The notes below the pieces were generated by a model that was given only the letters and a program-made list of their open reading frames with translations, did no database searches and was not told where the DNA came from. Positions 354-17,171 of a stretch of DNA of 19,764 bases are shown here, piece by piece. The stretch lies in assembly GCA_021399345.1 (NCBI GenBank), contig JAAFKI010000132.1, positions 1 to 19,764 of the forward strand, in the 5' to 3' direction. Each line of letters starts with the position of its first letter. Position 1 is the first letter of the stretch. This DNA comes from Candidatus Heimdallarchaeota archaeon. Its GTDB lineage: Archaea > Asgardarchaeota > Heimdallarchaeia > Heimdallarchaeales > Heimdallarchaeaceae. Made by a program: the position numbers and the translations under genes.

Positions 354-565
354 TATTATCACCTATTAGATATATTTGATATTAGAATTAATAGAGATAA
401 TAAAAACAATTTGGAATTCCAATTTTTATTGCTTTCTTATTGTTTGATAAGAACCTTCAAAAGAAGTATTTGTTCAAATTCTTCGATAGACCTTAGAAAT
501 TGTTTATTATGGGCATGAAATAAACTCCTGAAATTCAGTTAGAATAGGTTTTTCAGCACATCGAT

Positions 566-580
566 AAAAGATTTTTATAA
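566..580 (+). promoter_or_regulatory. Archaeal BRE/TATA promoter (AAAAGATTTTTATAA) for a leaderless 601 ORF
   Basis: Purine run followed by TTTATAA about 25 bp before the ATG at 601. Confidence 0.55.
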
Positions 581-600
581 TTTACTCACTATGTTACCTA

Positions 601-1143
601 ATGAATAAAGAATATGTTCTTGGACTATTGCGGACAACTTTGAACAATTATGTGGTGGGCTGTCTTGCTGGATATTTTGTCACTCATACAGAACCGAATA
701 ATCTTATTGAAACTCTAGAAATGAGAAATCAAAAAGCTCCAGAATTTGCTGTAATGCTTGATCTTAAACCAATGAGAGAAATGTTAAATAATTCAGAAAA
801 AAGAAGCATATTACTATCTGAACAAATGAAATCTATTCTTAGAAGTTTCGTTAAGGACATGTTTGAAATTGTCAAACTTTATGCTAATGAAACTAATCAA
901 TTTAATAAAGTGAAGAAGGCTAATTGGTATAGTTTTGTTCGTGTAATTAGAAATTGCTTAGCTCATGATTTTAGATTGAGATTCAACGATTATGATAAAA
1001 AAACGCTTCCTGTCAAATGGCAAGATAAGGAAATTACTTTAACTATGAAAGACCAACCATTGAAAGTTCAAATCTTGAATGAAGCTATCGCACTTGAATT
1101 ATTCAAGGAAATATTTACTTTTGTAGAAACTGAATTGAGATAA
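601..1143 (+). CDS. Hypothetical protein, putative HEPN-superfamily RNase
   Basis: 180 aa ORF, helical-looking, with RNCLAH (RxxxxH) at 949..966. Confidence 0.6.
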   Translation: MNKEYVLGLLRTTLNNYVVGCLAGYFVTHTEPNNLIETLEMRNQKAPEFAVMLDLKPMREMLNNSEKRSILLSEQMKSILRSFVKDMFEIVKLYANETNQFNKVKKANWYSFVRVIRNCLAHDFRLRFNDYDKKTLPVKWQDKEITLTMKDQPLKVQILNEAIALELFKEIFTFVETELR

Positions 1144-1281
1144 TTTAATATCCAATGATTTATTTTCTCTTATTTTTGGAAAAACATAGCACTGATTTTT
1201 TTTCAAAACTAGTATAACAAGATTTATCTATTTATTTCATATTCCTATTTATTTAATTAAGAAATATGATGATGAATACCT

Positions 1282-2103
1282 ATGACTGGAAATGAAGCGG
1301 AAAACATCAATATCAATAAATTTGAGGAGGAAACCTTTCTTTTTCTAATTCAGAATGTACTTGTTGCATTAGAGGAATTAGAAGACTTAGACAATGACAA
1401 AGTTTTCCAAGTAATTTACAGTAAACAGGAATTCTCCCCAGAACAATTTCACAGGATTCTTAAAGTCATTGAGTTTTTCCAAGATAGTATATCACCCTTC
1501 CCTATCTTTAGTAGAAAAGAAAAAGAAGAAAACGGAATTAGAACCATTAAAATCAGATCTTCAGATGAAGAAGGTTTTTTACATACATGTTACCTCGAGT
1601 TTATCTTTATCATTGATAATGGATACACAATTATTCCCGAAACATGTGGTTGTAGAGGGGAGATTTTTGATTATCTTCTCCCATCAATTCTCTCTTCAGA
1701 TATTTCGAAGATTTGGTTATGTATTAGTTTACAAGAAAACACCCCAGATGAGTTCAAAGAAAGAGTTAATTCACTTCTTAAAATGTATGTCCAAAATAAC
1801 TTCATTGAAGCTTGGACACATATAGGTTTTATAGCTGAAACTCTAACAAAAGAAATTTATCTAAAATCTTATCCTGATAAGACTCTAACAGATGTCAATA
1901 ATATTAGATGGAATAGTCTTCTCAAAAAACTAGAAAATGATAATAATCTTCCAGATATTGAACAATACGCACTACTTCTAGATTCCCTTCGACCAATTAG
2001 AAATGATGTTACTCATAATGATTACAGACCAACATCTGAAGACACAGAATTTGGAATTTCATGTTTAAATAGGATATTCAAATTCTATAAAAAGAAATTT
2101 TGA
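1282..2103 (+). CDS. Hypothetical protein with C-terminal HEPN/DUF4145-like domain
   Basis: 273 aa ORF. The C-terminal helical region has AW...IAE..., then IRNDVTH (1999..2016), then YRPTSED, which matches HEPN domain layout. Confidence 0.65.
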   Translation: MTGNEAENININKFEEETFLFLIQNVLVALEELEDLDNDKVFQVIYSKQEFSPEQFHRILKVIEFFQDSISPFPIFSRKEKEENGIRTIKIRSSDEEGFLHTCYLEFIFIIDNGYTIIPETCGCRGEIFDYLLPSILSSDISKIWLCISLQENTPDEFKERVNSLLKMYVQNNFIEAWTHIGFIAETLTKEIYLKSYPDKTLTDVNNIRWNSLLKKLENDNNLPDIEQYALLLDSLRPIRNDVTHNDYRPTSEDTEFGISCLNRIFKFYKKKF

Positions 2104-2111
2104 CATATCCC

Positions 2112-2119
2112 TTTTTTTT
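2112..2119 (+). terminator. Oligo-T archaeal terminator candidate
   Basis: T8 run just after the stop at 2103, between convergent genes. Confidence 0.4.
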
Positions 2120-2129
2120 GATTTTTCCT

Positions 2130-3845
2130 TTATCTATCTTCTATCCAATAATCCAATGTTTTTTGATATTCATCTTTTGTTATTTTGTTCTTAGCAATTT
2201 CTTCATATTCACTTCGTGCGTATTCGTATAACTTCAGTAATTCATCTATTAGTTTTTTTTTCTTCTCTTTTTCCCGGACTTGCTTAAGAATACTCTGTGG
2301 ATTTAGAAAACAAATCTCTCTATTATTGCGGACCATGATATCTCTTTGACCAAATAAGCACCAAAACTCAAGTTTATTACAGAAATCAATGTAGTTCTTA
2401 ATATCATGTTCTATTCCTGAACTAAAAGCACTGATTTTGGCATCGATAATCAATACACTATTCTTAGTTAAACGAACCAAGAAATCTGGAATTCTACCAT
2501 TCGGTAGTTGGTCTTTTTTCTTTGACTTACTTGGATAAATGATTCTCAAGGCTTTTTCACACCATCTTTCCCATTTCAACCAAGCAATACCTTGATAACC
2601 CACATTAGGATTTAATCCACAGTCAATAACAAGATCAGTCCAAGAAGAGATTCCATATTCTTTCCAACCTCCACTAAAAATATGACTGTGAATGCCTCCT
2701 GGAACTTCTGACGAGTTTGGAGACCTTCCTATTTCTTTATACTTCCTTAGTACAAGTTTCTTAGCTTTTTCAAATCCTTCTTTTCCTTTCCATTTATCAT
2801 GATCAATATTTGGTTCAAATCCGCAGTAACCAAGTAAATCATTCCACGACTCTATACCAAAACCTCTCCAACCTCCACTAAATGCTCGATCCACTATTCC
2901 ATAGTGTACTTCATTTATAGTTGGAACTCTATTGCTTTTCTCGTGAAAATCATTTAGCTCTTTTACTGCTCTTTCTAGTCCTTCTTTTCCCTTCCATGTT
3001 CCTCTTTTAGTATCTGGTTTGAATCCACAATATCTTACAAAACCTGGCCAATCGTTGATTCCAAACTCTTTCCAAACACCTTTTGATATGGGTTTAAGTA
3101 TAGTAGAAATATGGTGTGCTGTTGGTCTTTTTCCAATTTCTTTAGCAATTTTGATGTATTTCTTTTTGGCTTTGTCTAATCCTTCTTTGCCTGTCCATGT
3201 ATACATCTTGGTCTTGGGTTTGAAACCACAATACCTTACAAATTCTTGCCATTCAGTTATTCCAAATTCTTGCCATACACCTCTTTTAATAGCTTTATCT
3301 ATACCTGAAACATGATGAGAGGTTGCTCTTTTTCCAATCTGTTTAGAAATCTCAATGTAATTCTGTTTAGCCTCTTCTAACCCTTCTTTTCCTTTCCACT
3401 TTCTGGGTTCACCTCTAGAATATTCAATCTGTAAATAATCAAGTAAATTAAACCATCCAATAATTCCGAGCTCTTTCCAGTATCTATGTTTTAGAGCTCC
3501 GTGGATACCTCCTGATACCTCAGTGAGTTTTGGTGTTCTTCCATGTTTATCTTTAAACTTGATAATCTCTTTTCTTGCTCTTTCCAATCCTTCCTTACCT
3601 TTCCATGTCCCTCTTTTGGTTTCAGGTTCGAATCCACAATACCTTACAAAATCTGGCCAATCATTGATTCCAAACTCTTTCCAAACACCTTTTGTTATAG
3701 GTCTGATTATACTAGAGATATGCTGTGTTGTCGGTCTTCTTCCAATCTGTTTAGCAATCTCAATGTATTTTTGTTTAGCATTCTCTAATCCTTCTTTACC
3801 TGTCCAATATCCCCTTGGTTTTCGTTTGTTATTCGAATTCAACAT
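2130..3845 (-). CDS. Tandem-repeat (homing-endonuclease-associated-repeat-like) protein with C-terminal PD-(D/E)XK nuclease domain
   Basis: Six repeats WxGKEG(L/F)exA...G(R/K)xP...W(K/Q/R)xxGIxxW...CG(F/L)xP. The C-terminus has WERWCE...NGRIPDFLV...IIDAKIS. A TTTAAAAA TATA lies at 3865..3872. Confidence 0.8.
   Translation of the reverse strand: MLNSNNKRKPRGYWTGKEGLENAKQKYIEIAKQIGRRPTTQHISSIIRPITKGVWKEFGINDWPDFVRYCGFEPETKRGTWKGKEGLERARKEIIKFKDKHGRTPKLTEVSGGIHGALKHRYWKELGIIGWFNLLDYLQIEYSRGEPRKWKGKEGLEEAKQNYIEISKQIGKRATSHHVSGIDKAIKRGVWQEFGITEWQEFVRYCGFKPKTKMYTWTGKEGLDKAKKKYIKIAKEIGKRPTAHHISTILKPISKGVWKEFGINDWPGFVRYCGFKPDTKRGTWKGKEGLERAVKELNDFHEKSNRVPTINEVHYGIVDRAFSGGWRGFGIESWNDLLGYCGFEPNIDHDKWKGKEGFEKAKKLVLRKYKEIGRSPNSSEVPGGIHSHIFSGGWKEYGISSWTDLVIDCGLNPNVGYQGIAWLKWERWCEKALRIIYPSKSKKKDQLPNGRIPDFLVRLTKNSVLIIDAKISAFSSGIEHDIKNYIDFCNKLEFWCLFGQRDIMVRNNREICFLNPQSILKQVREKEKKKKLIDELLKLYEYARSEYEEIAKNKITKDEYQKTLDYWIEDR
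2598..3815 (-). repeat. Six intragenic tandem repeats of 67/69/67/67/68/68 codons
   Basis: Aligned by eye (aa 11-416). A 31-bp block is identical at 3055..3085 and 3664..3694 (offset 609 bp = 203 codons). Confidence 0.95.
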
Positions 3846-3988
3846 AATACATGCAGATTTTCAATTTTTAAAGTTTGATAAATTATTTATGACTAATAGC
3901 ATATATTTTTGCTAAGTGCTGACATAAAAGTATGACCTCAAAATAAAATCAATCTCTATCACAGACAAAGAACTAGATGTAATAATCA

Positions 3989-4813
3989 TCATTTTTTATT
4001 GAAAAATTCTGATAATACTTTTCTCATTCTTTTCTCTACTTCTTCTCCAAAGAATTCTGCTTGTTTCCTCAAATATTCATCATCCGATTTCTGTTCCCAC
4101 TCCTCCTCATCTTCATCTATTCCTTCTTCAGATTCTTGTTCCATTTGCAGTTCTTTTTGAAATCTAATAGGTAACATGGTTGTATTTGGAAATTGATCTA
4201 TAATGTCAATGGTCTTTTCTTTGACAATAGAAGGACAATATTCCAATTCATAATTATACAGATTCTTAACTACCTCTTTTAGTTGTTCTTTGTCTAAAAT
4301 TGCACTTTCATTATTTTTAATTTTGATTACTTGAGAATCTATAAAACTCTTCAGACATGCTCTAAATCTGTAAGCAGAATCTCCTTTTTTTTCCTCACCC
4401 ATCTCCTCAAACCATTTTTTCAGACCCTTGATGCTCTCATTTTTCCCAATTTTTTCTTCCAATAGAATGTCAGTATAATTATAGGAATGAAGATTCATTC
4501 CTAAATCATGCATACATACCCCTTCACAGTCATCTCTATAATTGCAGAAAATAATACTACGTATTCTCCATCTTAGACTCTTAGGAATTTCCTTTCCATA
4601 GACCCATAATTTGGTTGACTTCCAACCACCTGTTAACTCATAGAGTTCTTCTAATTCTGGTGTGATAGCTTGAAAGATTACATACCAAAATCTGTCGTCC
4701 TCTTCATTATCACATTTTTCAATTATGCTATTTATATCAGGCATTGATGCACTTGAGCTTCTCCTATTTATTCTAATCATACACTTAGTTTCATCTAATT
4801 CTGAAATATTCAT
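3989..4813 (-). CDS. Hypothetical protein (Cys/His cluster, acidic C-terminal tract)
   Basis: 274 aa ORF with GAAGGAGG upstream of the ATG, CNYRDDCEGVCMH cluster and EEGIDEDEEE tract. Confidence 0.8.
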   Translation of the reverse strand: MNISELDETKCMIRINRRSSSASMPDINSIIEKCDNEEDDRFWYVIFQAITPELEELYELTGGWKSTKLWVYGKEIPKSLRWRIRSIIFCNYRDDCEGVCMHDLGMNLHSYNYTDILLEEKIGKNESIKGLKKWFEEMGEEKKGDSAYRFRACLKSFIDSQVIKIKNNESAILDKEQLKEVVKNLYNYELEYCPSIVKEKTIDIIDQFPNTTMLPIRFQKELQMEQESEEGIDEDEEEWEQKSDDEYLRKQAEFFGEEVEKRMRKVLSEFFNKK

Positions 4814-4830
4814 AAGATGTAACCTCCTTC

Positions 4831-4871
4831 AACATATTTATACCTTTTATCTATTTTTTGTTGTTTTTATA
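4831..4871. promoter_or_regulatory. Divergent promoter block (copy A)
   Basis: Minus strand AAAAGGTATAAATA (BRE+TATA) toward 4813. Plus strand TTTATA at 4866..4871, about 25 bp before ATG 4895. Similar to 16796..16850. Confidence 0.6.
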
Positions 4872-4894
4872 TTGAAACACCATTGTTACATAAC

Positions 4895-5116
4895 ATGAGT
4901 GAGTATTCTAATTACATGCTTGGTAAAGTTGATCTTGAGACAGAGAAAGCTTATCTAACTATCATTGAGAATTTCACAGATAAAGAAATCTGGGTACCTA
5001 AAGCTGTTGTAGGATCAGATAAGCGTATCAAAAAATGGTTCATAGAACAGAAAGAGAAGGAACTGAAGGGTTTCATGAGAAAGAAAAAACAATCTGATTT
5101 AGATCAATTCTTCTAA
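4895..5116 (+). CDS. Small hypothetical protein with ETEKAYL...IWVPK motif
   Basis: 73 aa from ATG 4895 (track starts at TTG 4883). TATA spacing favours 4895. A paralog lies at 16877..17048. Confidence 0.8.
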   Translation: MSEYSNYMLGKVDLETEKAYLTIIENFTDKEIWVPKAVVGSDKRIKKWFIEQKEKELKGFMRKKKQSDLDQFF

Positions 5117-5137
5117 AGTATATTTTTCAAAAAATGG

Positions 5138-5189
5138 TGAGACGGATGGAGTATGAACTGCTTATTTAATCACAGAAATTTCCGTCTCA
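5138..5189. other. Intergenic stem-loop (terminator or small RNA)
   Basis: Perfect 9-bp IR TGAGACGGA (5138..5146) / TCCGTCTCA (5181..5189) between convergent small genes. Confidence 0.55.
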
Positions 5190-5224
5190 TTATCATTATT
5201 GAAATTTTAGTATTTATACTTGAA

Positions 5225-5380
5225 TTATTTCTTATTCTCATCTTCTGATTCTCTTGAAGAATCATATGATGGATTGTTGGAATTCATTTGATTAGATCTA
5301 TTGTCCCTATCAGCTTTGTAAGCTGGATTGTTTGGATTTTTCGAATAAGATCTATTCGAACTCGATTTGCCTTTGGCCAT
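5225..5380 (-). CDS. 51 aa hydrophilic micro-protein with NPNNPAY / NRSNQMNSNNPSY internal repeat
   Basis: Hand translation MAKGKSSSNRSYSKNPNNPAYKADRDNRSNQMNSNNPSYDSSRESEDENKK*, with AAAGGAGG SD upstream. Below the ORF-track length cut-off. Confidence 0.8.
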   Translation of the reverse strand: MAKGKSSSNRSYSKNPNNPAYKADRDNRSNQMNSNNPSYDSSRESEDENKK

Positions 5381-5381
5381 C

Positions 5382-5447
5382 TGGGTTATACCTCCTTTAG
5401 ATTTTATTTTGTAAAAACAGTTTAGTTCTCAAAATCTGTATAACCCA
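5382..5447 (-). promoter_or_regulatory. Structured 5' leader with the SD bulged out of a stem
   Basis: 5382..5391 pairs with 5438..5447 (10 bp) and 5399..5405 pairs with 5431..5437 (7 bp). The intervening 5392..5398 is AAAGGAG on the minus strand. Confidence 0.55.
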
Positions 5448-5710
5448 TTATCGGTATTACAACTTTGTACCATGTATTTTAGCATCAGGGACATAGAGTA
5501 GTATACGATTCTACTTACCTATAAATTTTCCTCGACTGCTTCTACATAGAACAGAAGCACATTATAGTATATAATATTAACCAAAAACATGGAATACAAA
5601 ATTAACGATACAAGGATAATTGAAAAAACTCAACAAATTTACATGTTCTTGATGTGTTTTTATATTGTTTTTTAGTTGATTTTGTGAGATTAAAGTTTAG
5701 ATAGAACAAG

Positions 5711-8128
5711 ATGATAAACATGGATAGATTATTGGTATTTTTCTTAGTTATTACTATCTCAATCACTCTTTTGTTTTTTCTCTCATTTCCTTACATAAGA
5801 ATAAAAAACCATGAATTCTTCTTGCAAAGAAAGATCTTCTTCCCATTTTACAGATGCAGGATTTTTTTGCTTATTACTAACATAAACAATAACATCAAAC
5901 CAAACTCAGAGGAAATGGCAGAGATTCATGGTAGTTTTAGCACAATTATAGCTCTCAATGTTGAGAGGATCCAGTTAGTTATCTCTAAATATCAGTCAAA
6001 AACTAGTCTTTACATCTTTCTTACCAAAAATGGATTTTCTAAGAAGAAAATTTTCAACTATCTGGAAAAAGAATTGTTACTGGTAACGAATACTCTTTCT
6101 ACTAATTATGGAGGTCATGTGAATATCTTGAATTCAAAGCAATCCAGACTTCTTTTAAGGTTCTTAAAAAAGAAGAAAAACAAGGTTCCAATAGATTTCT
6201 CTTCTCTAGTAGATGCAGAAATAGATGTGATGGATATTTTGTACAGGACTATAGCAGTTGAAAGCTTTCCTGACATAAGTCTAGTAATGAGTGTTAAGAA
6301 AAAAGAAAGCACAAGTAATTATTTCACTGTGTATTTCTCAGCTCTTTCTGATAACTCCAAATCATTAAAGCGCTTTTTACATGCTACGAATACCTTCAAA
6401 AAGATGAAAACATCCTCAGCTCAAGATTCTGAACATGTTCATCTAGATGAATTACCAAAGTACTTTCACATTCCTTTAGATTACCAAGGAACTTCAACAA
6501 CTACTCAATCGAGAAGAAAACCTATCTTCCAACAAGATCAATCTCTTCTTCTTGGATATGAATATATTAACGAATTACTTGATGATGAAATCTCCATCAA
6601 CATTGGTGAGCTGCTCTACAATGTTGAAATCTACGGGATGATAGGTAGGGGGAAAACTAGCTTAGTTAGTAGTATCATAGAACATCTTATCCACAATAAT
6701 ATTCCTAGTTTAATATTTGATATCAAAGGAGAATATGCAACTACATTTACAACTGAATCAAATGTAGAGATTTTTACGATAGGTCCTCCCCACCCGATTT
6801 GTATCAATCTCTTTGATACCAGAGATGAAGATGATGTTAGAGGAACACTTCTGCTCATCGAAGAGATGATAGCTTCCTCTGATCAAAACTTTAGTCCTTC
6901 TATGAAGAATCTCTTTGAAACTGCTCTTTTTCTCACTCACAAAGAAGAAAAGAGAACGTTAGAAGTCTTTGCTGGGCATCTGATTACACTCGCAAAAAGA
7001 AACAAGCGAGTCACTACCATCCAGAATACCTTAGATGCGGTGTTAAACAGATTAAACTTCATCTTCAATCCCAGCAGTTTTGAGATATTAGGAGTCTCTC
7101 AAACAACTTTGAACTTCGATGTTATGGAACAAGGAAAGACCATTATTCTTGACCTTAGTCAATTCCAAAGAAGAGCAGCAAAACCGTCGGATATCTATCT
7201 AGTCTGCAACTTAATACTGAAATTATTCTACAAATTTGCATCATCTAAAGATCTAACTAACAAATTACGTTATGTTGTAGTTTTAGAAGAAGCAATCAAT
7301 ATCATCCCACACATTTATAGAACTCAGAGTTCAGCTTCTTTGATTACAGCTGAGAATAATATTTTATTGGGTAGGAGTTTAGGTATTGGTCATATCTTTT
7401 GTACTCAGATGTGGCATAGTGTGAGTAGAATAGTTCATGCTAACTCTTCCACCAAGATTGTTTTTCGTTCGTGTCAAGAGACGGAGAAGATAGCTAAAGC
7501 ACTCAATCTCCACGATTTTCATTTTGAGCGTCTCCAACAACTCCCTATTCGTCATTGTTTTGTTTGGAAGGATGGACAACATAAAGCTATAGAGATGGTT
7601 ACTAAGGATTTCAATAGAAAACCTCTCAATTACAATCACTATTTGTTATTTCTAAAAAGAAAATACTCCTATGCTGCTTATCCTCTTTTGTTCAACAGTT
7701 TCATTGATATGAGGACTTCCCTCTATGACAAACTAACTCAAAGGAAACATAATCATCAGAAGAAAGAACCAAAGAAAAAGAACATACAACAAACAGAAAG
7801 TAATAAACAGAATCCAAAGAATAGAAAGACTTCACCCAAAAAACAACCTTTTATTCAGGATGATGTCTGCAAAACTTTTTGCTCTTTAAGTAAAAACCAA
7901 GAAGAATGTTCCAAGATTAGAAAAGATGCTGAGATTGTGAGTTCTATTATGTTAAAAAGGTATTCAAAGTTTGAAATTGAACAGGCTATCCTTGGAGAAT
8001 TAGGGACCTCATTAGAAGATTTATTGAAACAGGTTTTAAAAGAGAAGAAACTAAACGAAGATGATAAAGTGGTTTATTGTGCTCAAAGAGAACTAACAAA
8101 TCAGCTGATGAAAATAAAACTAGCATGA
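5711..8128 (+). CDS. HerA/FtsK-superfamily (DUF87-type) P-loop ATPase with N-terminal membrane anchor
   Basis: Walker A GMIGRGKT, FDIKGEY motif, Walker B VVLEEA, GRSLGIG...TQ arginine-finger region, hydrophobic N-terminus and a C-terminal Cys cluster. Confidence 0.85.
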   Translation: MINMDRLLVFFLVITISITLLFFLSFPYIRIKNHEFFLQRKIFFPFYRCRIFLLITNINNNIKPNSEEMAEIHGSFSTIIALNVERIQLVISKYQSKTSLYIFLTKNGFSKKKIFNYLEKELLLVTNTLSTNYGGHVNILNSKQSRLLLRFLKKKKNKVPIDFSSLVDAEIDVMDILYRTIAVESFPDISLVMSVKKKESTSNYFTVYFSALSDNSKSLKRFLHATNTFKKMKTSSAQDSEHVHLDELPKYFHIPLDYQGTSTTTQSRRKPIFQQDQSLLLGYEYINELLDDEISINIGELLYNVEIYGMIGRGKTSLVSSIIEHLIHNNIPSLIFDIKGEYATTFTTESNVEIFTIGPPHPICINLFDTRDEDDVRGTLLLIEEMIASSDQNFSPSMKNLFETALFLTHKEEKRTLEVFAGHLITLAKRNKRVTTIQNTLDAVLNRLNFIFNPSSFEILGVSQTTLNFDVMEQGKTIILDLSQFQRRAAKPSDIYLVCNLILKLFYKFASSKDLTNKLRYVVVLEEAINIIPHIYRTQSSASLITAENNILLGRSLGIGHIFCTQMWHSVSRIVHANSSTKIVFRSCQETEKIAKALNLHDFHFERLQQLPIRHCFVWKDGQHKAIEMVTKDFNRKPLNYNHYLLFLKRKYSYAAYPLLFNSFIDMRTSLYDKLTQRKHNHQKKEPKKKNIQQTESNKQNPKNRKTSPKKQPFIQDDVCKTFCSLSKNQEECSKIRKDAEIVSSIMLKRYSKFEIEQAILGELGTSLEDLLKQVLKEKKLNEDDKVVYCAQRELTNQLMKIKLA

Positions 8129-8376
8129 ATGATGCTTAGATCTCAAAGAACTGATTATAGTTTTCCCTAAGATACTCTTTTACAAGATAACCACTTTGTA
8201 CACCTAGCTTATCATAGTTAAGAAAAGTTGGTAGGACAGAATAGGCAAGAAAAAATTCTCTCTTCGAATATAAATAAGTTTTGCAGAATATAAAAAGACG
8301 TGAAAATATATGTGTAATTCTAGTTTATAATTAGAGCTAAAATTTATATGAATTAACAATATCTAGATTAGTAATT

Positions 8377-9303
8377 ATGTCAAAAGACTTCTGTCAAAAC
8401 TGTGGAAAAGCGAAAGGGAATAGTACCCGCTGTGATTTTTGTGGATTTAGGGAAGAAAAACAACAACCCCAAATTAGTACAGATAAAAATGAGATCAGAA
8501 AAATAGGTGTTTGGTTATCTAAATGTCCAGTATGTAAATTCGGTCAAGTGAACAGATTTACAAAGAAGGTTTTCTTTAATCTCATCAAAAAGAAATTTCT
8601 GGAATGTGAGAGCTGTGGAGCAATTTTTTCTCAATTTGATTCTAAAAATTACAGATTGAAACATGTTATGAAAACCTCTAGTGAAGTGTGGAAATTATAT
8701 GGTGGAGTTGTACTCAGTGAAAGAGAATGGAAGAATATTGCAGTGGGAGGTATGTCCAATAGACTTCAAAGAAAAACTGATATTGAATTGTGGGAAAAGA
8801 AATTTTCCAATGGAGAAGTTTCTTTAAGAGATACAGTACTTGTTCCAGAAGATTTTTCTTCAGAAAACCCTCCTATAATCCTTAAGAAAAACGAAGAATT
8901 ACTTTTTGCATTTAGAAATATAACATTACAAGAAACAAGAATGGTCAGTAATCGAAAACGTATCAATTTAGGGACGATAGGAATTGTAAAGGTAGCAGGA
9001 TATGTTGGTGGATCCAAGCCTGAGATGAGGAAAATCGATGTAGGAGTATTATGCTTGACATCCAACCGTTTAGTTTTTGCTGGTCGGAATAAGAACGTCA
9101 TTTCACAACTTGATAAGATAATGAAAATAGATGAATATTATTCTGGGATTTCAATAGCTAGAGAAGGAAAGACCAAAACACAGTTCTATACGGGGGATGC
9201 TTTTAATAAAGATTTCAAAATTACAATTGAGGGAAGAGGATATGTCCAGAAACTAAGTCCTTCAAGAATTATACAACAAATTCAGAATTTAGTTCGATTC
9301 TAA
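8377..9303 (+). CDS. Double zinc-ribbon protein with C-terminal PH/GRAM-like domain
   Basis: CQNC..CDFC and CPVC..CESC pairs. C-terminal ILKKNEELL...DVGVLCLTSNRLVFAG resembles bacterial PH-like folds. Confidence 0.7.
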   Translation: MSKDFCQNCGKAKGNSTRCDFCGFREEKQQPQISTDKNEIRKIGVWLSKCPVCKFGQVNRFTKKVFFNLIKKKFLECESCGAIFSQFDSKNYRLKHVMKTSSEVWKLYGGVVLSEREWKNIAVGGMSNRLQRKTDIELWEKKFSNGEVSLRDTVLVPEDFSSENPPIILKKNEELLFAFRNITLQETRMVSNRKRINLGTIGIVKVAGYVGGSKPEMRKIDVGVLCLTSNRLVFAGRNKNVISQLDKIMKIDEYYSGISIAREGKTKTQFYTGDAFNKDFKITIEGRGYVQKLSPSRIIQQIQNLVRF

Positions 9304-9352
9304 TTGTTTTATAGTATTACCAATATATTGAATCATGTATAAATTTCTATAT

Positions 9353-9700
9353 CTATTTTGGTAAAAATGATCGTAGATGTTCTTCATTAATCTGTTCTTT
9401 ACAGATTGGGCAAGTACCTTTAACCTTAATCCATTCCTGAATATGATTCTTGTGAAAAACATGATTACAAGCTTCTACTTGAACTATTTTTTCTCCTGCA
9501 ACAATAATGTTCTTGCATATCTCACAATAAGGAGCTTTCTTTCCACAATTTAAACAAACAATAGGTCCTTCATCTTCAATTTCAGCAAGAACAGCTTCAC
9601 AATAAATACATTGGATCTTCTGTTTTTGTTCTTCGATTTTTTCAGTTCTTTCAGATTTAGCTTCTTCCTTAGTATCATCTGTTGTCTCAAAAGTTCTCAA
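9353..9700 (-). CDS. RING-H2 finger protein (E3 ubiquitin ligase-like) with preceding zinc ribbon
   Basis: CEIC...CNHVFHKNHIQEWIKVKGTCPIC RING pattern with the conserved W and P, plus upstream CIYC..CLNC. The TTG start is uncertain. Confidence 0.85.
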   Translation of the reverse strand: MRTFETTDDTKEEAKSERTEKIEEQKQKIQCIYCEAVLAEIEDEGPIVCLNCGKKAPYCEICKNIIVAGEKIVQVEACNHVFHKNHIQEWIKVKGTCPICKEQINEEHLRSFLPK

Positions 9701-9938
9701 ATGAACTGGTTTTCTTATTCACAAAGTAATATCTACTTGAATATGTATTAAACTGTTTGGACTAAATTTAACTTAAATTTGTAAATAGATACTTTCATCT
9801 TTGTATTTTTCAAGATTAATAAACTAAAATCTAAAATTTACCACATTTATAAACCAAACTTCTCATTATATCTACAGAACAGTCTATCTCTCTCTTATTC
9901 TCCCAACCCACTAAAAGAGAAGAAGCAAAAGAAAATAG

Positions 9939-10472
9939 GTGAACAAAGTGGGTTTAAACAATCACGTAAAAATAAAAGAAGAAGTACAAAACTATCAATC
10001 AGCCATAGAACATTTACAAGAAGAGTTAGCACGATTGAAAGAGATGAGGGAACAGCTGAACGAACCAATGAATATGACAATTGATTTATCCGAACCTAAG
10101 GATCTCATGGAAGCAGCGAGAAAATATGAACAGGAACTAAAAACTGGAGAGAAGGATCCAGTCATGTATATGTACAAAGACATGATGATTGAAATTGTCT
10201 TTGAAGCTCAAAGGGAACTAAGCAAGAAACTTCCTTTGTCTTTCCTTACCTCCATACGTGAGAAGGATAATTTGGAAGATTTACTCTCTTATGCTCTTGC
10301 CGAACTTACCATTCTTGAATCTAAACTCTATTCTCTCCATTTAGATGAATTTGATTGTTTGATTTGCGGTGAAAGGAATCTTGTTCTTGATGAGACCAGA
10401 GGAGAACAAACCTGCAAGAATTGTGGAACAGTTAGCAGAGAGAAGATGATAGAGGAAGAAATAATACATTAA
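9939..10472 (+). CDS. Coiled-coil protein with C-terminal TFIIB-type zinc ribbon
   Basis: N-terminal heptad-like IEHLQEELARLKEMREQL and C-terminal CLICGERNLVLDETRGEQTCKNCGTV. The start codon is uncertain. Confidence 0.75.
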   Translation: MNKVGLNNHVKIKEEVQNYQSAIEHLQEELARLKEMREQLNEPMNMTIDLSEPKDLMEAARKYEQELKTGEKDPVMYMYKDMMIEIVFEAQRELSKKLPLSFLTSIREKDNLEDLLSYALAELTILESKLYSLHLDEFDCLICGERNLVLDETRGEQTCKNCGTVSREKMIEEEIIH

Positions 10473-10478
10473 AACAAA

Positions 10479-11489
10479 GTGAATTGGATGAGTACAATGC
10501 AATTACCTCAAAGTGGCAAAGAAAGACAAGAAGCAATAGAAAAGCAACTAGCTCATTACTTGAATAGAGCTTTATTGATTTTCTCAGAAGAAGAGGTAGG
10601 AAAAAAACTATTTCTTAATATGTTAAGTGAAGTCTATGCATCTCATGAGAACCTAGCCCAGAAACACTCTACTAAGTGGGGAGTGATTGAGGAACCTGCA
10701 AAGTATATCAAGGGATTGAAAGTAGAATCATGGGAATACGAAGGGATAAAGAAGCACTATGACACTCTATTCGAGAAATATGATTCAGAAGATTTAGAGC
10801 ACTTGGTCAAACTGTGGTATGTCAAGTTTGAACTCTCAGAGATAAAAGAATTGGTTGAACACTACTATTCAGAAGATGAAGAGGAAAAAGAAATAGCTAC
10901 TGAGATATTGAAAGGATTGGGGGTATGGAGATTAGAAAGATTCCTATGGAAAGAGTTTGGTAGAATCTACAAACTACCACCAGTAGAGTATTTAGAGAAC
11001 TACTATCAATATTGTGCTTCAACAAGGGAGGATAATCCATTAGAAGAGAAGCATTTCATGGCTAAGATTGAGGAAATTCAAGGAAAGTTGTTTGATTGCT
11101 TGGTTTACGATTTGATAGCTGTGGAAGGAGAATTGGGTATAGCAAGAATGGAGAAAATGGCAAAACTAGCTAAAGATTCCTCTACAGTAGAAGAAAAGAT
11201 AACTATACTGAAAAAACTTCTCTATCTCTACCCTTACCATAGAAATTATACACGTAATCCTATTTATGAGGAGAATCCAGGATATTGGATCTATTCAGAA
11301 GTGATAGAAACTTTGGAAGAGATAGGAGGAGAAGAAGCAGAAAAGGTTTTGCAGGAGATCGTTCAAGGAGATTTTCATCATGAAGAAACAAAAGAAGAAG
11401 CAATTAAACAACTTGAGAATATAAGAGAAATACATTATCTTACTAATCTACCTACTTTAGAGGATTTCGTAGAAAAAACAGATACTTAA
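10479..11489 (+). CDS. Acidic helical hypothetical protein with a C-terminal HEAT-like repeat
   Basis: 336 aa, 6 bp after the previous stop. EVIETLEEIGGEEAEKVLQEIV...TKEEAIKQL is HEAT/PBS-like. The stop overlaps the convergent gene's stop (TTAA 11486..11489). Confidence 0.7.
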   Translation: MNWMSTMQLPQSGKERQEAIEKQLAHYLNRALLIFSEEEVGKKLFLNMLSEVYASHENLAQKHSTKWGVIEEPAKYIKGLKVESWEYEGIKKHYDTLFEKYDSEDLEHLVKLWYVKFELSEIKELVEHYYSEDEEEKEIATEILKGLGVWRLERFLWKEFGRIYKLPPVEYLENYYQYCASTREDNPLEEKHFMAKIEEIQGKLFDCLVYDLIAVEGELGIARMEKMAKLAKDSSTVEEKITILKKLLYLYPYHRNYTRNPIYEENPGYWIYSEVIETLEEIGGEEAEKVLQEIVQGDFHHEETKEEAIKQLENIREIHYLTNLPTLEDFVEKTDT

Positions 11490-11713
11490 CTTTCCTTCCA
11501 GAGATCCTTTGTAAATCCATTATATTTTCTCAAAGTATCCAAGATGAATCTATTGACATTAGGGTTTTCTTCTTCAGAGAGAGCATTCCAGAGTGCTTTG
11601 AAAGCTCTCTTATCCTTTATACTGACTATCGCTTTTTCTCTTACTTCCCAATTATCATCTTTCAGCTGTTCTAGCAATTCTTCAAAAGTAGGTTCCTTCT
11701 CTTCTTTACTCAT
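11486..11713 (-). CDS. Short HEAT (PBS lyase-like) repeat protein
   Basis: MSKEEKEPTFEELLEQLKDDNWEVREKAIVSIKDKRAFKAL. Start moved to ATG 11713, 1 bp after the upstream gene's stop, matching the M(G/S)KEE starts of its neighbours. Confidence 0.75.
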   Translation of the reverse strand: MSKEEKEPTFEELLEQLKDDNWEVREKAIVSIKDKRAFKALWNALSEEENPNVNRFILDTLRKYNGFTKDLWKES

Positions 11714-11714
11714 A

Positions 11715-13028
11715 TCAGCCATCCTCATTCGTTTCTGGTTTTTCAATTGATATATTATATAGTTCTAGCAGTTTCTGTTCAATGTAATCTCTTTCCCAGT
11801 CTTGTGGGTATTTCTCTATTGCTTTTTGGACTGGTTTCACTACTTTGTTAAAGCCAGAATCTAGTAACAGATTTACGATTTGGAAACTACTATCAGAGCC
11901 TAAATTTTCGATATTATTATCAATGAATTTTTCAGTTTCAATTGGATCAATTCTCTTAGCAATCTCAAACATTTCTTTTGTATGAGAAGAGTATGGTTCC
12001 TCGAAATTTACTTCAATTGAACCATCATAAACTCCTTCTAGTGTTTCAAGAATTAGTTTCACAAGAGAATTTTCCTTATAAAGCATGAGAGATTCAGCTG
12101 CCATTACTCTGAGAAGACCAAAGCCATTATGTAGATATTCTGTTATGAAAGGGATAGAACTTTCATGTGCTAGCTTTCCTAAAGCTTTGAGTATTACTTC
12201 GATATAGAATGGATTTGAATCCTCACTACATGCTTGTAGACAATCATTAAGGATATCAACAGCCCTTTCATCTGAAGTCTCTCCTAATTTCTCAATTAGT
12301 TTATAATCGACGTATAAATCTTCATTAATGTACTCCTGTGCTTCAACAATTAGTTCTTCAATTTCCTCAGAAGTAAAATCCCAACTTTGGCTTTGCACTG
12401 ACCACTTTATCATTTCAAAATTGCTAAGAATATCATTCATCTCTGAAAGACTACAATGCTGATGCAAAGCATCAAGAGCCAATCTATCACCTGAATCTTC
12501 TAAAGCTTTTATTATCTCAGCTGTTATTTCTTTAGGTATGTTCATATTATTGAATTTCTCTAATGCTTTAACGAGTGCATTTATTGCTTCGTGTGTTTTT
12601 ATTCTTCCCAAAGCTTGTATTGCTTGAAATGTAATTTGCTTATCATCTTCAACGTATCCAAGCAAAATCCATCCCAAGAATTCGGCATTTCTTGGATCGC
12701 CTATTTTATCAAGAGCTTTAACTACGGCAGATTTAACTCCAAAATGCTCATCAGAATCACCTGCATCCACAGCATAGAAAACATTGGTAAGGAATGCTGA
12801 ATCAGTTCGTTCTGTAAGTTTAGGTATAGCATCAAGAGTAATTTTCTTGAAGAACCTATTGATTTTTTCGTCTCCTTGAGGAACAGATTGCACCAATTCG
12901 ATTATATTTTGTGTCCAATCCAGCTTCTGTCTCCTAAAATAATCCTCATAGTATTCGAGAATTCTTCTAGGACTTTGGTTATAAAGTGACTCTAACTCAA
13001 ATCTAAGTTTTTCCTCTTCTTTCCCCAT
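11715..13028 (-). CDS. HEAT repeat (PBS lyase-like) protein
   Basis: Repeats VKSAVVKALDKIGDPR, QAIQALGRIKTHEAINAL, IIKALEDSGDRLALDAL, ILKALGKLAHESSIPFI. Probable ATG at 13028 (MGKEEEK). Confidence 0.85.
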   Translation of the reverse strand: MGKEEEKLRFELESLYNQSPRRILEYYEDYFRRQKLDWTQNIIELVQSVPQGDEKINRFFKKITLDAIPKLTERTDSAFLTNVFYAVDAGDSDEHFGVKSAVVKALDKIGDPRNAEFLGWILLGYVEDDKQITFQAIQALGRIKTHEAINALVKALEKFNNMNIPKEITAEIIKALEDSGDRLALDALHQHCSLSEMNDILSNFEMIKWSVQSQSWDFTSEEIEELIVEAQEYINEDLYVDYKLIEKLGETSDERAVDILNDCLQACSEDSNPFYIEVILKALGKLAHESSIPFITEYLHNGFGLLRVMAAESLMLYKENSLVKLILETLEGVYDGSIEVNFEEPYSSHTKEMFEIAKRIDPIETEKFIDNNIENLGSDSSFQIVNLLLDSGFNKVVKPVQKAIEKYPQDWERDYIEQKLLELYNISIEKPETNEDG

Positions 13029-13043
13029 AGCAGTCAACTTTCT
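13014..13043 (-). repeat. 30-bp direct repeat spanning leader and start of HEAT gene 2
   Basis: AGAAAGTTGACTGCTATGGGGAAAGAAGAG, 28/30 identical to 13822..13851. Confidence 0.85.
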
Positions 13044-13836
13044 ATGTGTTTTTATTTTCGAAATCCTGTAGAATTTCCTTAATTTTATGCTGAAATATTG
13101 AATCTGTTTCTGACGATAATAGTTTCCTTAATGGTTCGATTGATTCCATTGCATTTAATTCTCCCAAGATACTGGCTGAACACCATCTCACTCTTTTGTC
13201 ATCATCTTTCAATGTTGAAATCAAGGGCTCAGCAAACTTCTTACACAGTATAGTTTGATCAAAAATATTCGGATTATTTAGCCTTCTAACAGACATAACC
13301 GCTTCCCATCTTACATCAGCATTTGGGTCATTCATTGCACTAATAATGGGGTCAAATACTCGTTCATCTTTCATTTTGCTTATTGCTTGAAGTATAGACA
13401 TTCTAAGTATACTACTCTCATCTTTCAAGGTTTGAATGATTTGAACCAAAAATGGTTTTCCTAACTTACTCACTGCGAAAATAATACATCTTCTCTTGTC
13501 ATCATCACTGTCTCTTAATGCGTTGAGTAGTTGTTCAATAGCTGGTCTTCTAAGCTTCATTAATGCCCATGCAGCAGTCTTGCAAACATAATTGTCATCC
13601 AAAAGAGCAACTAAAGGTTGTGTAGCTTGTACATCTCCTATCTCTCCTAAAGCTTTTGCTACTTTAGTTCTGACCCACCACATCTCATTTTCTAAGGCAG
13701 TGATTAAAGGTTCAACAGCTCTTGAATCTTGAATTTTCCCTAATCTCATTGCTGCAAGTCTTACCTCATTGTAATCATAGTCATTCAATTTCTCTAGCAA
13801 TTCTTCTAAGCAAGCTTCTTGCTCTTCTTTCCCCAT
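13042..13836 (-). CDS. HEAT repeat (PBS lyase-like) protein
   Basis: VRLAAMRLGKIQDSRAVEPLITAL, VRTKVAKALGEIGDVQATQPLVALL, VRWCSASILGEL. Probable ATG at 13836 (MGKEEQE), with a TATA about 25 bp upstream. Confidence 0.9.
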   Translation of the reverse strand: MGKEEQEACLEELLEKLNDYDYNEVRLAAMRLGKIQDSRAVEPLITALENEMWWVRTKVAKALGEIGDVQATQPLVALLDDNYVCKTAAWALMKLRRPAIEQLLNALRDSDDDKRRCIIFAVSKLGKPFLVQIIQTLKDESSILRMSILQAISKMKDERVFDPIISAMNDPNADVRWEAVMSVRRLNNPNIFDQTILCKKFAEPLISTLKDDDKRVRWCSASILGELNAMESIEPLRKLLSSETDSIFQHKIKEILQDFENKNT

Positions 13837-13851
13837 AACAATCAACTTTCT
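13822..13851 (-). repeat. 30-bp direct repeat spanning leader and start of HEAT gene 1
   Basis: AGAAAGTTGATTGTTATGGGGAAAGAAGAG, 28/30 identical to 13014..13043. Confidence 0.85.
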
Positions 13852-13860
13852 CAGAAATGG

Positions 13861-13905
13861 TTTATAACTCTTCCTTACTTTGGTTGTCTTTTTATAGCTC
13901 TTTCT
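13861..13905 (-). promoter_or_regulatory. Tandem BRE/TATA-like boxes 30 bp apart
   Basis: AGAAAGAGCTATAAA (13891..13905) and AGGAAGAGTTATAAA (13861..13875), 13/15 identical. Confidence 0.6.
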
Positions 13906-13925
13906 AGTAGGTTGTTCACCATATC

Positions 13926-13986
13926 GGTTGAAGGGCAAGTGGGTTCTCCCACAAACACTTTCAACTTTTAGTTCTACCCTTCAACC
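13926..13986. other. Intergenic nested inverted repeat
   Basis: GGTTGAAGGG (13926..13935) / CCCTTCAACC (13977..13986) enclosing a GTGGG-TTCT-CCCAC hairpin (13939..13952). Confidence 0.55.
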
Positions 13987-14092
13987 ATGGGCACTCCTTT
14001 ATAGTGAAAAAGATTTTCTGCTAATGGATAGGTGAGTAAGTTTCTGATTCTTTCCTTGTTTGTGGTATAAGAAAGAACAGCTGGTATGGGAC

Positions 14093-16783
14093 TCACCAAT
14101 CATTAAATCTCTTCTTAATTTTAATGTGAAATATGACAATAACACTTGTAGAAAGGATTGAAAATGATATCCATGAATATTCCTCTACAAGTAGAACTGT
14201 TGTAAAAACATATGTCTTATTCGTCCAATAGCCTAAGTTATCTTGAGCATTAATCTGAAGAATATGTTCTGAGTGTTCAGAAGGTATCAAGAAATCGAAA
14301 GGACTTGTTTTAGTTGTGAAGTTATTTGAATCCCATCTATAAAGAACTTGAGCAATTCCTGAAAAGTCTATTATATCAAAACTAATGATTGTTCCATCAG
14401 GTTGTTCAGTGTTATTTAATATCGTTAGTAGATTAACTGTGGGTGCTGTAGTATCATATACTTCTACTATAACTTGAGAAGTTGCAAGATTTAAGTATTG
14501 ATCATAAGCTTCTATCTCATAGATAAAAGTTCCTGCAGATAAACCATCAAGAACAACAATTATTGGTGTCCCATTTATCCATGTTCCTGTAATCTCTTCT
14601 ATGCCGTTTCGTTTTAGTGTATAATTTCCAGGGTATTTATCGTAAAGATTCCATGTTATAATATTACCTGTCTCTCCCTCGTTAAACTGTATATTTCCTG
14701 AATTAGAAATCATTGGTGATATTTGATCGAAAATATATTCTAATATTAGTACATCATCATCAATTACTGAAGTGATGAAAAGATGGTCTTGTTTGATATA
14801 ATATCCACCATTAATCATGGCGTGTATTAAATTATCATCGATGCTAGTAATTATTCCATTCCCTGTTGAATTCAAACAGATAACATAATCAGTACCAAAC
14901 ATACCAACTATATATAAATTATTTAATTCATCAAGAAATACAATTTCAGCTGTCTCATCTGTTGTAGAATTACCTAGATATGTGCTGAATATTAATCCAT
15001 TCCCTGTTGAGTTTAGTTTTGTTATCACTGCATCCTTCCCTCCTTGAAAAGTTTGATAAGGATTTAAGGTAGGATAATCAATATAATCAGTATACCCCGT
15101 AATATAACAGTTTCCTGCAGAATCTAGTGCTAATCCTACTGAATCATAATTATCACATTCATCCCCAGTTCCACCGATACATGTACTGAAAATTAAATTC
15201 GTTCCATTTGTGTCTATTTTTGCAACAAACAGATCAAAACCACCTTGAGGTGCTTGATACTCATTCACAACTGGGAAATTTGAAGAGTCTGTCACACCAC
15301 TAATATAGATGTTATTGTAAGCATCAAGCACTAGTTCAGATGGTGTATCCCAATGATCTCCACCCAGATAAGTGCAAAAAATACAATTCCCATCACTTTC
15401 AAATTTAGCAATAACACAATCCATTACTCCTGGATCACCTTTAACACTTTGAATAGCATTTTTAACTGGAAAAGATTGTGAAGCAGTTTGACCGTAAAAA
15501 TATGCGTTTCCATTTTCATCTACTTTGAAATTCCTAAATTCATCACTGCTACCACTGCTCCCCAAATAAGTGCTGTATAATAATCCATTTCCAGTTGAAT
15601 TCAAACCAGTAATGAAGATGTCTTTGTATAGTTGGTTATTTTGATATTGATTGAACACAGGAAAATTATCAGAATCTGTTTCTCCACTTATATAGACATT
15701 CCCGTTAGTATCAACACCAATGCCATATCCAATATCAAAATCATTTCCTCCAAGATATGTACTAAATAGGATACTAGTACCATCTGGCTCTAATTTTGTT
15801 ACGAAAGCATCATAATCACCTTGCCAAATAGGTTCATAAGCATTAACAATTGGGAAATTTGGGTAAGAGTTAGTACCTCCAGTTATATAGATGAAACCAT
15901 CTGAATCAACAAAAATACCTTTTCCAGCATCAACTTGATCTCCTCCAAAAGTGTATTCATTTATTTTAATGATAGGATCTATTGTCAATTCCTTTTTAGA
16001 ATCATATTGATTTATTCCAAATCCAAAAGAATTAGATAAACCTCTAGATTTGATGAATTGTGTTTCTACCTCTCTTAGATTATCTTGGAAAACTTTCAAT
16101 CCATTTTCATGATAAACACATTGTCCACTTTTTGCTGAGTATCCGTATATTTCCCCTTCTAAAATTTCCAATTGTATTGAATCACTCATTTGTATTAATA
16201 TATCATTTGGGTCCGCTTCAGGATGAACAATAAATTCGTATTTTAAGCCTTCTTTAGTTAAGATGTATCGTAGATCTATTCCTGAGTATATATCAAAATA
16301 CCAAATTTCCTCATATTCAAAAACATTGGTTATAACAGAACCACTGATGAAATAGTTACTATATCCAGATAATGCTCTTCTACCTACTGGTTCAACATTA
16401 TTTGAACCCGAAAACATAATGGAGATGAGCTCTGTCTGGTAACTAGTTTTATCTACGTAACTTATACTGATTTCTGAAGATTTGAAGAAGAAAACATTTT
16501 CTGGTGATTCCATATAGAATTTTACAGCAGAATTTCCAAATTGACCCTTGTTTTCCTTGAATCCTTTTTGTCTTTCTTTGTTTTGTGAATTCTCAATAAT
16601 GGTCTTAAACTCAGGTTGTGTCCATTCAGTATTGATTTCAAAATTTCTTAAGTGAGAGATTGACATATCATCTCCATTAGTGTTTTTTTGCGTTATTAAT
16701 GAAGCTGGAATTGATATTGTTAATAATATGATGAAAAGTGTAAGTGATTTCAGATTTAGGTGTTTTCCCATGTGACCCACCAT
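14093..16783 (-). CDS. Cell-surface SBBP beta-propeller repeat protein with Ig-like domains and C-terminal TM anchor
   Basis: Signal-like N-terminus; F.ENKGQ and YSGIDLRY...GLKYEFIVHPEADP..I domain; repeated D.F(V/I).K...G..L.FSTYLGG...D..GN.YI.G.T.S.NFP; Ig-like stretches; C-terminal hydrophobic helix followed by KIKKR. Confidence 0.9.
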   Translation of the reverse strand: MVGHMGKHLNLKSLTLFIILLTISIPASLITQKNTNGDDMSISHLRNFEINTEWTQPEFKTIIENSQNKERQKGFKENKGQFGNSAVKFYMESPENVFFFKSSEISISYVDKTSYQTELISIMFSGSNNVEPVGRRALSGYSNYFISGSVITNVFEYEEIWYFDIYSGIDLRYILTKEGLKYEFIVHPEADPNDILIQMSDSIQLEILEGEIYGYSAKSGQCVYHENGLKVFQDNLREVETQFIKSRGLSNSFGFGINQYDSKKELTIDPIIKINEYTFGGDQVDAGKGIFVDSDGFIYITGGTNSYPNFPIVNAYEPIWQGDYDAFVTKLEPDGTSILFSTYLGGNDFDIGYGIGVDTNGNVYISGETDSDNFPVFNQYQNNQLYKDIFITGLNSTGNGLLYSTYLGSSGSSDEFRNFKVDENGNAYFYGQTASQSFPVKNAIQSVKGDPGVMDCVIAKFESDGNCIFCTYLGGDHWDTPSELVLDAYNNIYISGVTDSSNFPVVNEYQAPQGGFDLFVAKIDTNGTNLIFSTCIGGTGDECDNYDSVGLALDSAGNCYITGYTDYIDYPTLNPYQTFQGGKDAVITKLNSTGNGLIFSTYLGNSTTDETAEIVFLDELNNLYIVGMFGTDYVICLNSTGNGIITSIDDNLIHAMINGGYYIKQDHLFITSVIDDDVLILEYIFDQISPMISNSGNIQFNEGETGNIITWNLYDKYPGNYTLKRNGIEEITGTWINGTPIIVVLDGLSAGTFIYEIEAYDQYLNLATSQVIVEVYDTTAPTVNLLTILNNTEQPDGTIISFDIIDFSGIAQVLYRWDSNNFTTKTSPFDFLIPSEHSEHILQINAQDNLGYWTNKTYVFTTVLLVEEYSWISFSILSTSVIVIFHIKIKKRFNDW

Positions 16784-16795
16784 TAAATATATCAG

Positions 16796-16850: not shown

Positions 16851-16867
16851 CTTCTAACCCTCTCTGT

Positions 16868-17155: not shown

Positions 17156-17171
17156 TTAAATCACTTTATTC

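Follow-up and report, generated by a model that had tools for sequence, protein, structure and literature searches.

The window analysed here is one whole contig of 19,764 nucleotides (nt) from a Candidatus Heimdallarchaeota archaeon (assembly GCA_021399345.1, contig JAAFKI010000132.1). The modular nuclease gene P0001 is located on its minus strand (2130..3845, stop codon included) and encodes a protein of 571 amino acids (aa) with a net charge of +37. The open reading frame (ORF) is intact, contains no internal stops, and is of full length compared with its homologues P0003–P0006. A sequence-only reading of this DNA had proposed a modular repeat array fused to a PD-(D/E)XK nuclease, and this architecture was recovered, i.e. 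six repeats followed by a C-terminal PD-(D/E)XK domain in a single ORF. Judged by sequence and predicted fold, P0001 appears to be a two-part protein composed of helical modules of the PF18780 kind and a complete PD-(D/E)XK domain. Searches of the whole protein against NCBIfam, PHROGs, and PADLOC returned nothing meaningful.

The repeats are delimited by the recurrence of a WxGKEG anchor, which occurs six times in P0001 (at residues 14, 81, 150, 217, 284, and 352) with a spacing of 67–69 residues, so that the six repeats of 67–69 aa described earlier could be confirmed. These repeats, all on the minus strand, are R1 (aa 11–77; 3615..3815), R2 (aa 78–146; 3408..3614), R3 (aa 147–213; 3207..3407), R4 (aa 214–280; 3006..3206), R5 (aa 281–348; 2802..3005), and R6 (aa 349–416; 2598..2801). 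Pairwise identities are 63–73% within subtype A (R1, R3, and R4, with R4 being 73% identical to R1), 37–46% within subtype B (R2, R5, and R6), and 33–42% between the two subtypes, in agreement with the proposed order A-B-A-A-B-B. The A-to-B junction is duplicated, as had also been noted: the 15-residue sequence TKRGTWKGKEGLERA is present at residues 75–89 and 278–292, and positions 2937–3197 (R4 and the first 23 codons of R5) share 82% identity over 261 nt with positions 3546–3806 (R1 and the start of R2). The fixed scaffold was found partly as described, with the three tryptophans and the GI dipeptide present in all six repeats but CGF in only four of them (LQI in R2 and CGL in R6); CGF was the sole inexact detail of that description. 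Five of the six repeats are basic (isoelectric point, pI, 9.2–9.9), and R5 is the sole acidic one (pI 5.6). The array obtained a Tandem Repeats Finder score of 468, and a hidden Markov model (HMM) derived from the repeats matched this ORF with an E-value of 8.7e-137 and had no other match in the 3.27-Mb genome; the repeat pattern is far beyond chance.

PF18780 (HNH_repeat, 'homing endonuclease associated repeat'; Pfam gathering cut-off, 26 bits) scored 40.6 bits (E = 3.2e-10) against the whole of P0001, summed over the repeats. This score lies above the cut-off and supports the earlier suggestion that the repeats are of the homing-endonuclease-associated kind. Precomputed PF18780 assignments exist for the homologues P0003–P0008, and the signature G(R/K)xP(T) and FGI..W was recognized by eye in five or six of the six repeats. 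The P0001 repeats probably represent a divergent Asgard subtype of PF18780. A six-frame search of the host's own genome with the PF18780 model gave nothing at E ≤ 0.001, because single repeats score too low.

An AlphaFold (AF2) model of R1–R3, obtained from an alignment of 85 three-repeat homologue windows, had a predicted local distance difference test score (pLDDT) of 92.6 and a predicted template modelling score (pTM) of 0.51, with the linkers being less confident. Each repeat is modelled as a helix of 19 residues, a short helix of 8, and a third helix of 7 (aa 16–34, 44–51, and 63–69 in R1). The high pLDDT, the weak linkers, and the low pTM point to well-defined beads whose mutual orientation is undefined. 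The 8-residue second helix corresponds to the 'variable central segment' of the sequence-only reading. Column entropies calculated from 113 repeats show that variability extends beyond this helix: the exposed positions of helix 1 are equally variable, and the two variable regions are the exposed side of helix 1 on the one hand and helix 2 with the loop on the other, whereas the fixed columns are W4, G6, GL, A13, P28, I38, G45, W47, FGI, and W55 followed by NDLL. Similarity to LOTUS and winged-helix domains was likewise seen for single repeats, and a Foldseek search of the three-repeat model against the PDB found nothing (best E = 0.27, designed PPR proteins).

The array is followed by the PD-(D/E)XK core (aa 417–525; 2271..2597, minus strand), which was delimited using a 59-member alignment, an AF2 model, and fold matches. 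The PD..DAK motif reported at the C-terminus is intact, consisting of P453-D454 (2484–2489) and D468-A469-K470 (2436–2444), and is accompanied by an upstream E426 located in a helix (2568–2570); all of these codons lie on the minus strand, and the residues were identified from the family alignment. The core also contains an NY motif at Y485 and LEFWCL at residues 492–497. The motifs W..WE..C, PD, (D/E)AK, NY, and LEFWCL are conserved in the 59 family members, and the P, D, and K residues are each conserved in at least 90% of the 59–61 relatives. The AF2 model based on the family alignment (pLDDT 91) shows the order alpha-beta-beta-beta-alpha-beta, with helix 1 and strands 2 and 3 bearing the conserved acidic residues and the lysine. 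The model aligns best with PD-(D/E)XK nucleases of solved structure, which account for most of the top 50 fold matches, including the defence nucleases McrC, Can2, and Avs4. The nearest structure in the ESM Atlas (TM score 0.74 over 158 residues, terminal helix included) belongs to a Bacillota cluster, every member of which carries PF18780. Both the motif placement and the core expected of the PD-(D/E)XK superfamily can thus be recognized in the sequence and the model, and the restriction-endonuclease fold claimed for the C-terminus holds at the level of prediction. None of the curated Pfam PD-(D/E)XK families (Mrr_cat, RmuC, PDDEXK_1-11, Tox-REase, etc.) reaches its cut-off, and a sequence-profile search of the PDB with the nuclease domain gave no match. 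Sub-threshold Pfam matches among the 59 members were to RmuC (six members; best E = 0.0016), MmcB (three), Tox-REase-7 (two), and Vsr (two), all of which are families of the restriction-endonuclease fold, and Mrr_cat and PDDEXK_3 were only feature leads below 0.9. Since all Pfam matches were sub-threshold, the domain appears to constitute an uncurated family inside the PD-(D/E)XK superfamily.

An exhaustive HMMER search with residues 405–571 over 1.84 billion representatives identified 61 proteins, in which the nuclease domain is almost always C-terminal and is combined with various arrays. The partners are PF18780 repeats in 29 proteins (e.g. P0047, with six canonical 70-aa repeats), DUF4379 treble-clef zinc fingers in nine (e.g. 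P0046, with at least six repeats), and C2H2 fingers in two; others are HTH_23, Sigma70_r4, HTH_17, or MerR-type helix-turn-helix (HTH) units (e.g. P0067, with a string of HTH units). The family HMM identified three more members in the host's own genome. Two of them carry C2H2 fingers (E = 1e-16 to 1e-19), namely seven fingers (C110:1256–2431, plus strand) and eight TGEKP-linked fingers (C175:18370–19524, plus strand), and the third carries DUF4379 repeats (C55:94400–95284, minus strand). A scan for named genomes, using a 14-sequence alignment as query, detected the domain in Pacearchaeota, Aenigmatarchaeota, Omnitrophota, Planctomycetia, and Haloarcula vallismortis. The member from Hal. vallismortis ATCC 29715 (NZ_AOLQ01000044.1; L020:3251–4366) is 371 aa long, its nuclease being preceded by five Myb/HTH-like repeats. 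The position of the array is therefore filled elsewhere by bona fide DNA-binding arrays, which argues, if indirectly, that the array of P0001 is the DNA-targeting part; this domain substitution is the strongest evidence for such a role. Most congeners also contain a nuclease-family ORF of ~390 aa, the same length as the C2H2 paralogues. No description of this nuclease family was found in the literature searched.

In evolutionary terms, the shuffleable character proposed in the sequence-only reading was borne out, in that the number and order of repeats vary among homologues. The nuclease-bearing close homologues contain nine repeats (P0003 and P0004) or six (P0005 and P0006). P0003 and P0004 have arrays that are collinear at the level of single repeats. 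The A-type repeats of P0001 (R1, R3, and R4) all match R2 of these two proteins best (52–66%; 63–66% for R3), whereas the best match of R2 is their R1 (51–58%) and that of R5 is their R3 (53–56%). These repeat-to-repeat matches show that the P0001 array was rebuilt by module duplication and loss, whereas identity in the nuclease domain remained at 53–54%. In addition, the proteins P0007–P0015 from Promethearchaeota and metagenomes contain 6–13 copies of the same ~68-aa repeat without the nuclease, some with an N-terminal HTH-like domain of ~100 aa, indicating that the array also exists as a stand-alone protein.

The gene resides in an insertion of ~19 kb (441..19551) at the 5' end of an aldo-keto-reductase (AKR) gene. 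This island was delimited by comparison with four congeners (G016, G020, G006, and G009), in which the site is empty and the AKR 5' end runs directly into DNA that matches window positions 19614–19764. It is flanked by a direct repeat of ~150 bp (about 284–440 and 19552–19700), which duplicates the 5' end and promoter region of the AKR gene; the right copy is decayed and frameshifted, and no paralogue of the right flank exists in the host's own genome. The gene content of the island comprises two HEPN-motif ORFs, a HerA/FtsK-like ATPase gene, genes for a RING-finger protein and HEAT-repeat proteins, and a TnpB-like gene. No integrase was recognized in the island using Pfam and PHROGs, with the TnpB-like gene as the only find, and the window contains no Rfam families or tRNAs.

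Within the island, P0001 forms part of a ~3.5-kb cassette (2105..5645) together with ORF274 (3989..4813, minus strand; 274 aa, acidic in its C-terminal third, without any family match) and a gene for a small protein with a PCNA-interacting protein (PIP) box. The cassette is absent from a smaller related element of congener G013, in which the HEPN pair and TnpB are preserved, the HerA gene is shorter, and the right end is the same (L021, G013:C65, 5187–10768; ~5.6 kb). The gene thus has the residence typical of homing endonuclease genes, i.e. in mobile insertions (cassette and island) that are absent from homologous DNA. A related island in G001, whose HerA gene is 74% identical, contains another family member with five DUF4379 repeats and the nuclease at the same place and in the same orientation upstream of the HerA-like gene. 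PF18780-type nuclease genes were found in 2 of 25 congeners, and the nuclease domain was not found in the sampled other genera of the family Heimdallarchaeaceae. Other homologues are located near pAgo with helicases and an SLFN/AlbA protein, or among HEPN/HEPN_AbiV genes. The patchy occurrence, the cassette, the island, and the exchange at the same position indicate that the nuclease gene is an accessory gene carried as exchangeable cargo by mobile or variable DNA.

From these data, we consider P0001 to be probably a modular array-targeted DNA endonuclease that is carried as exchangeable cargo of mobile elements. In the proposed mechanism, six independently folded PF18780 modules on short flexible linkers, i.e. 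the N-terminal 400 residues, would serve as the DNA-targeting array, and several modules lying side by side would define a long, rare DNA site. The C-terminal 155 residues, whose fold and catalytic/metal set (E426, D454, D468, and K470) are described above, would then cut the DNA near the bound site. New specificities could arise through duplication, loss, and reordering of modules, and the gene would most likely be a selfish nuclease of the homing or element-conflict type rather than a housekeeping enzyme.

Several observations weigh against this interpretation. PF18780 modules have no recognition code, so that no target site can be predicted, unlike in the case of the C2H2 paralogues, and no experimental study of these modules or of their DNA binding was found in the literature searched. 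No single P0001 repeat passes the Pfam threshold alone, and the hhalign comparison of the Asgard repeat profile with canonical repeats (P0032, P0038, P0047, and P0036) gave a weak match (E = 0.003 over 32 columns), although in register. A sequence-profile search of the PDB with the repeats gave spurious spectrin matches only and thus no solved structure. The junctions of the cassette are not clean, with G013 having ~100 nt of unrelated DNA instead, and no direct repeats are present at these junctions; insertion can therefore not be separated from deletion, and the absence from G013 could equally be due to a deletion there. Finally, searches of GenBank phages, PLSDB plasmids, and IMG/VR (where only a strict pattern was used) did not detect the nuclease domain. 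A more far-reaching version of the proposal, in which the domain is a natural general-purpose 'FokI-like' cleavage module that mobile elements of archaea and bacteria freely combine with at least four types of tandem array (PF18780, C2H2, treble-clef, and Myb/HTH), PF18780 reads one short sub-site per module with a decipherable code in the variable helix-2 region and so provides a further natural scaffold for programmable DNA recognition, and the nuclease drives integrase-free site-specific spread or retention of the carrier element, appears doubtful to us.

Three other explanations were considered. A role in defence or inter-element conflict, in which viruses or rival mobile elements are recognized by sequence through the array and destroyed by the nuclease, is possible but rather unlikely. 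It would be in line with homologue neighbourhoods that resemble defence islands (pAgo with helicases and SLFN/AlbA, or HEPN/HEPN_AbiV), with the position of the P0001 gene between two HEPN-motif ORFs (DUF4145) and a HerA-like ATPase gene matching defence HerA models, with the presence of McrC, Can2, and Avs4 among the fold neighbours, and with a quick turnover of modules, as would suit an arms race; the host and the element itself would be spared because they are without the long site. However, selfish elements also gather in defence islands, a reader of fixed sequences would make a poor general defence, and the loci have no conserved sensor, methyltransferase, or partner gene in common. The sole PADLOC match of P0001 is a marginal one to BrxA (E = 0.00099, 17.1 bits), which no single stretch of the protein supports. 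That the repeats bind RNA, a protein, or a cell-envelope ligand, or that the nuclease is unused in a domesticated regulator, seems improbable. Although no experimentally shown ligand of PF18780 was found in the literature searched, Promethearchaeota commonly encode nuclease-free proteins of up to 13 repeats, and some domains of the LOTUS/winged-helix type, which single repeats resemble, bind RNA, these points are opposed by the family-wide conservation of the catalytic residues (at least 90%), the strongly basic array, and the recognizable N-terminal partners, which are overwhelmingly DNA-binding modules.

The remaining explanation concerns the C-terminus. The AF2 model contains a terminal helix of 44 residues (aa 526–569; 2139..2270, minus strand), and the protein ends in QKTLDYWIEDR, which includes a PIP-box-like tail, Q561-K-T-L-D-Y-W567 (2142–2165, minus strand). 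This helix with its tail may, speculatively, mediate dimerization or clamp docking, and P0001 could accordingly be pictured as a replication or repair nuclease recruited to PCNA, as in archaeal NucS/EndoMS, with the array binding DNA structures or damage. QKTLDYW fits the pattern Qxx(L)xx(W), and Qxx[LIMV]xx[FYW] occurs within 20 residues of the C-terminus in 16 of the 61 family members, compared with 0.8% of internal control windows; small PIP-tailed proteins are also encoded nearby. We nevertheless regard a housekeeping nuclease of this kind as improbable, because its patchy distribution (2 of 25 congeners and none in the other sampled genera) and its location on a mobile island do not fit housekeeping repair, and neither does the fact that zinc fingers can take the place of these hypervariable arrays. 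The PIP tail is also compatible with an array-targeted endonuclease. A complex prediction for the PCNA of this genome (L012:1078–1860, minus strand) and residues 520–571 gave a score of 0.01, which is uninformative either way.

Tandem DNA-binding modules are typical of the architecture of homing endonucleases (PMC5714182), and P0001 resembles the modular homing endonucleases with PF18780 or NUMOD/HTH modules (I-HmuI/I-TevI type) in that tandem small helical modules with GRxP(T)...FG(x)W are joined to a nuclease and the gene is free-standing in variable or mobile DNA. It differs from them in its PD-(D/E)XK domain, which takes the place of HNH or GIY-YIG, in its divergent Asgard repeats whose single units are sub-threshold, and in that the gene does not lie in an intron or intein. 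The PD-(D/E)XK fold already serves as a homing endonuclease in enzymes of the I-Ssp6803I type. These consist of one domain, are small and oligomeric, and recognize their site through the nuclease itself, whereas P0001 would use a separate array.

The sequence-only reading had likened P0001 to a transcription activator-like effector nuclease (TALEN), and this is appropriate for the layout of array and nuclease but not for the type of repeat: the ~68-aa three-helix repeats of P0001 are 33–73% identical and joined by flexible linkers, whereas those of TALENs are near-identical 34-aa units that form a rigid superhelix. TALE repeats proper were ruled out, given the period of 67–69 aa instead of 33–35, the three helices per unit instead of two, the lack of any Pfam TALE match, the range of identities, the variation over helices 1 and 2 instead of at a two-residue pair, and the pTM of 0.51 with flexible linkers. 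Compared with engineered TALENs and zinc-finger nucleases (ZFNs), which use the FokI domain, P0001 is natural and its cleavage domain is of another family. The domain is no closer to that of the type IIS enzyme FokI than to McrC or Can2. In a further difference from type IIS enzymes such as FokI and BspD6I, no methyltransferase was found among the tested window ORFs (all of at least 90 aa, and those of at least 60 aa in the first 8 kb) or in the homologue loci, in contrast to type II/IIS restriction-modification systems with a cognate methyltransferase encoded nearby. No sequence-level relationship was found to NucS/EndoMS or to the restriction-like endonuclease of R2 retrotransposons, and no reverse transcriptase accompanies P0001. 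Close parallels are the C2H2 paralogues of the same genome, which share the nuclease family, the layout, the PIP-like tails, and the location in small insertions and differ in the targeting array.

Tandem modules on a nuclease are thus already known, and PF18780 is named for its association with homing endonucleases. The new features are the uncurated PD-(D/E)XK cleavage domain, its pairing with at least four types of array, the divergent Asgard repeat, and the placement of the cassette in related islands. If the array targets DNA module by module, the family would represent nature's equivalent of ZFNs and TALENs, in which evolution repeatedly joined one cleavage domain to interchangeable reader arrays, and PF18780 would gain its first testable function. 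The compact helical scaffold and the small cleavage domain would then be candidates for engineering, and a class of selfish or conflict genes would be added to those of Asgard mobile elements. Through its relative in the cultured Hal. vallismortis ATCC 29715, the family is accessible to experiments.

Of the other genes of the island, the HEPN-like ORF pair (601–1143 and 1282–2103, plus strand) carries the Rx4-6H motifs RNCLAH and RNDVTH, the second ORF being a weak DUF4145 match, and is 81% conserved in the G013 element. The latter element is located at the 5' end of another gene and is flanked by a short duplication containing the start codon (5062–5090 and 10768–10796 of L021), which suggests a common mode of insertion. 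A homologue of ORF274 without the nuclease is present in G024:C23. A second cargo block (8052–17502), likewise missing from the G013 element, encodes the RING-finger protein (9353–9700), a TFIIB-type zinc ribbon protein, HEAT-repeat proteins, and an 896-aa beta-propeller protein (SBBP/DUF7948); in G016, too, giant HEAT proteins come after the homologous nuclease gene. The TnpB-like gene and the ~300 nt downstream to the right boundary of the island (17502–19555), in which no Rfam RNA was detected, are 84% identical in the G013 element.

The small protein encoded in the cassette (4883..5116, plus strand) is 77 aa long and ends in a canonical PIP box, QSDLDQFF. It belongs to a family of proteins of ~75–105 aa with canonical or near-canonical tails (QSDLDQFF, QTKLSLF, and QKKLKHFF), which adjoins repeat-nuclease genes in three loci, i.e. 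this one and two others, and has many copies across the genus. Judged by their tails, these small proteins may be element-encoded PCNA binders. Further copies were identified at L011:4295–4561 and 2289–2615 (both on the minus strand), at L004:4274–4591 (minus strand), and in the host's own genome at C115:31230–31514 and C132:8614–8865, and a decayed copy is present in the window itself at 16877–17146 (plus strand).

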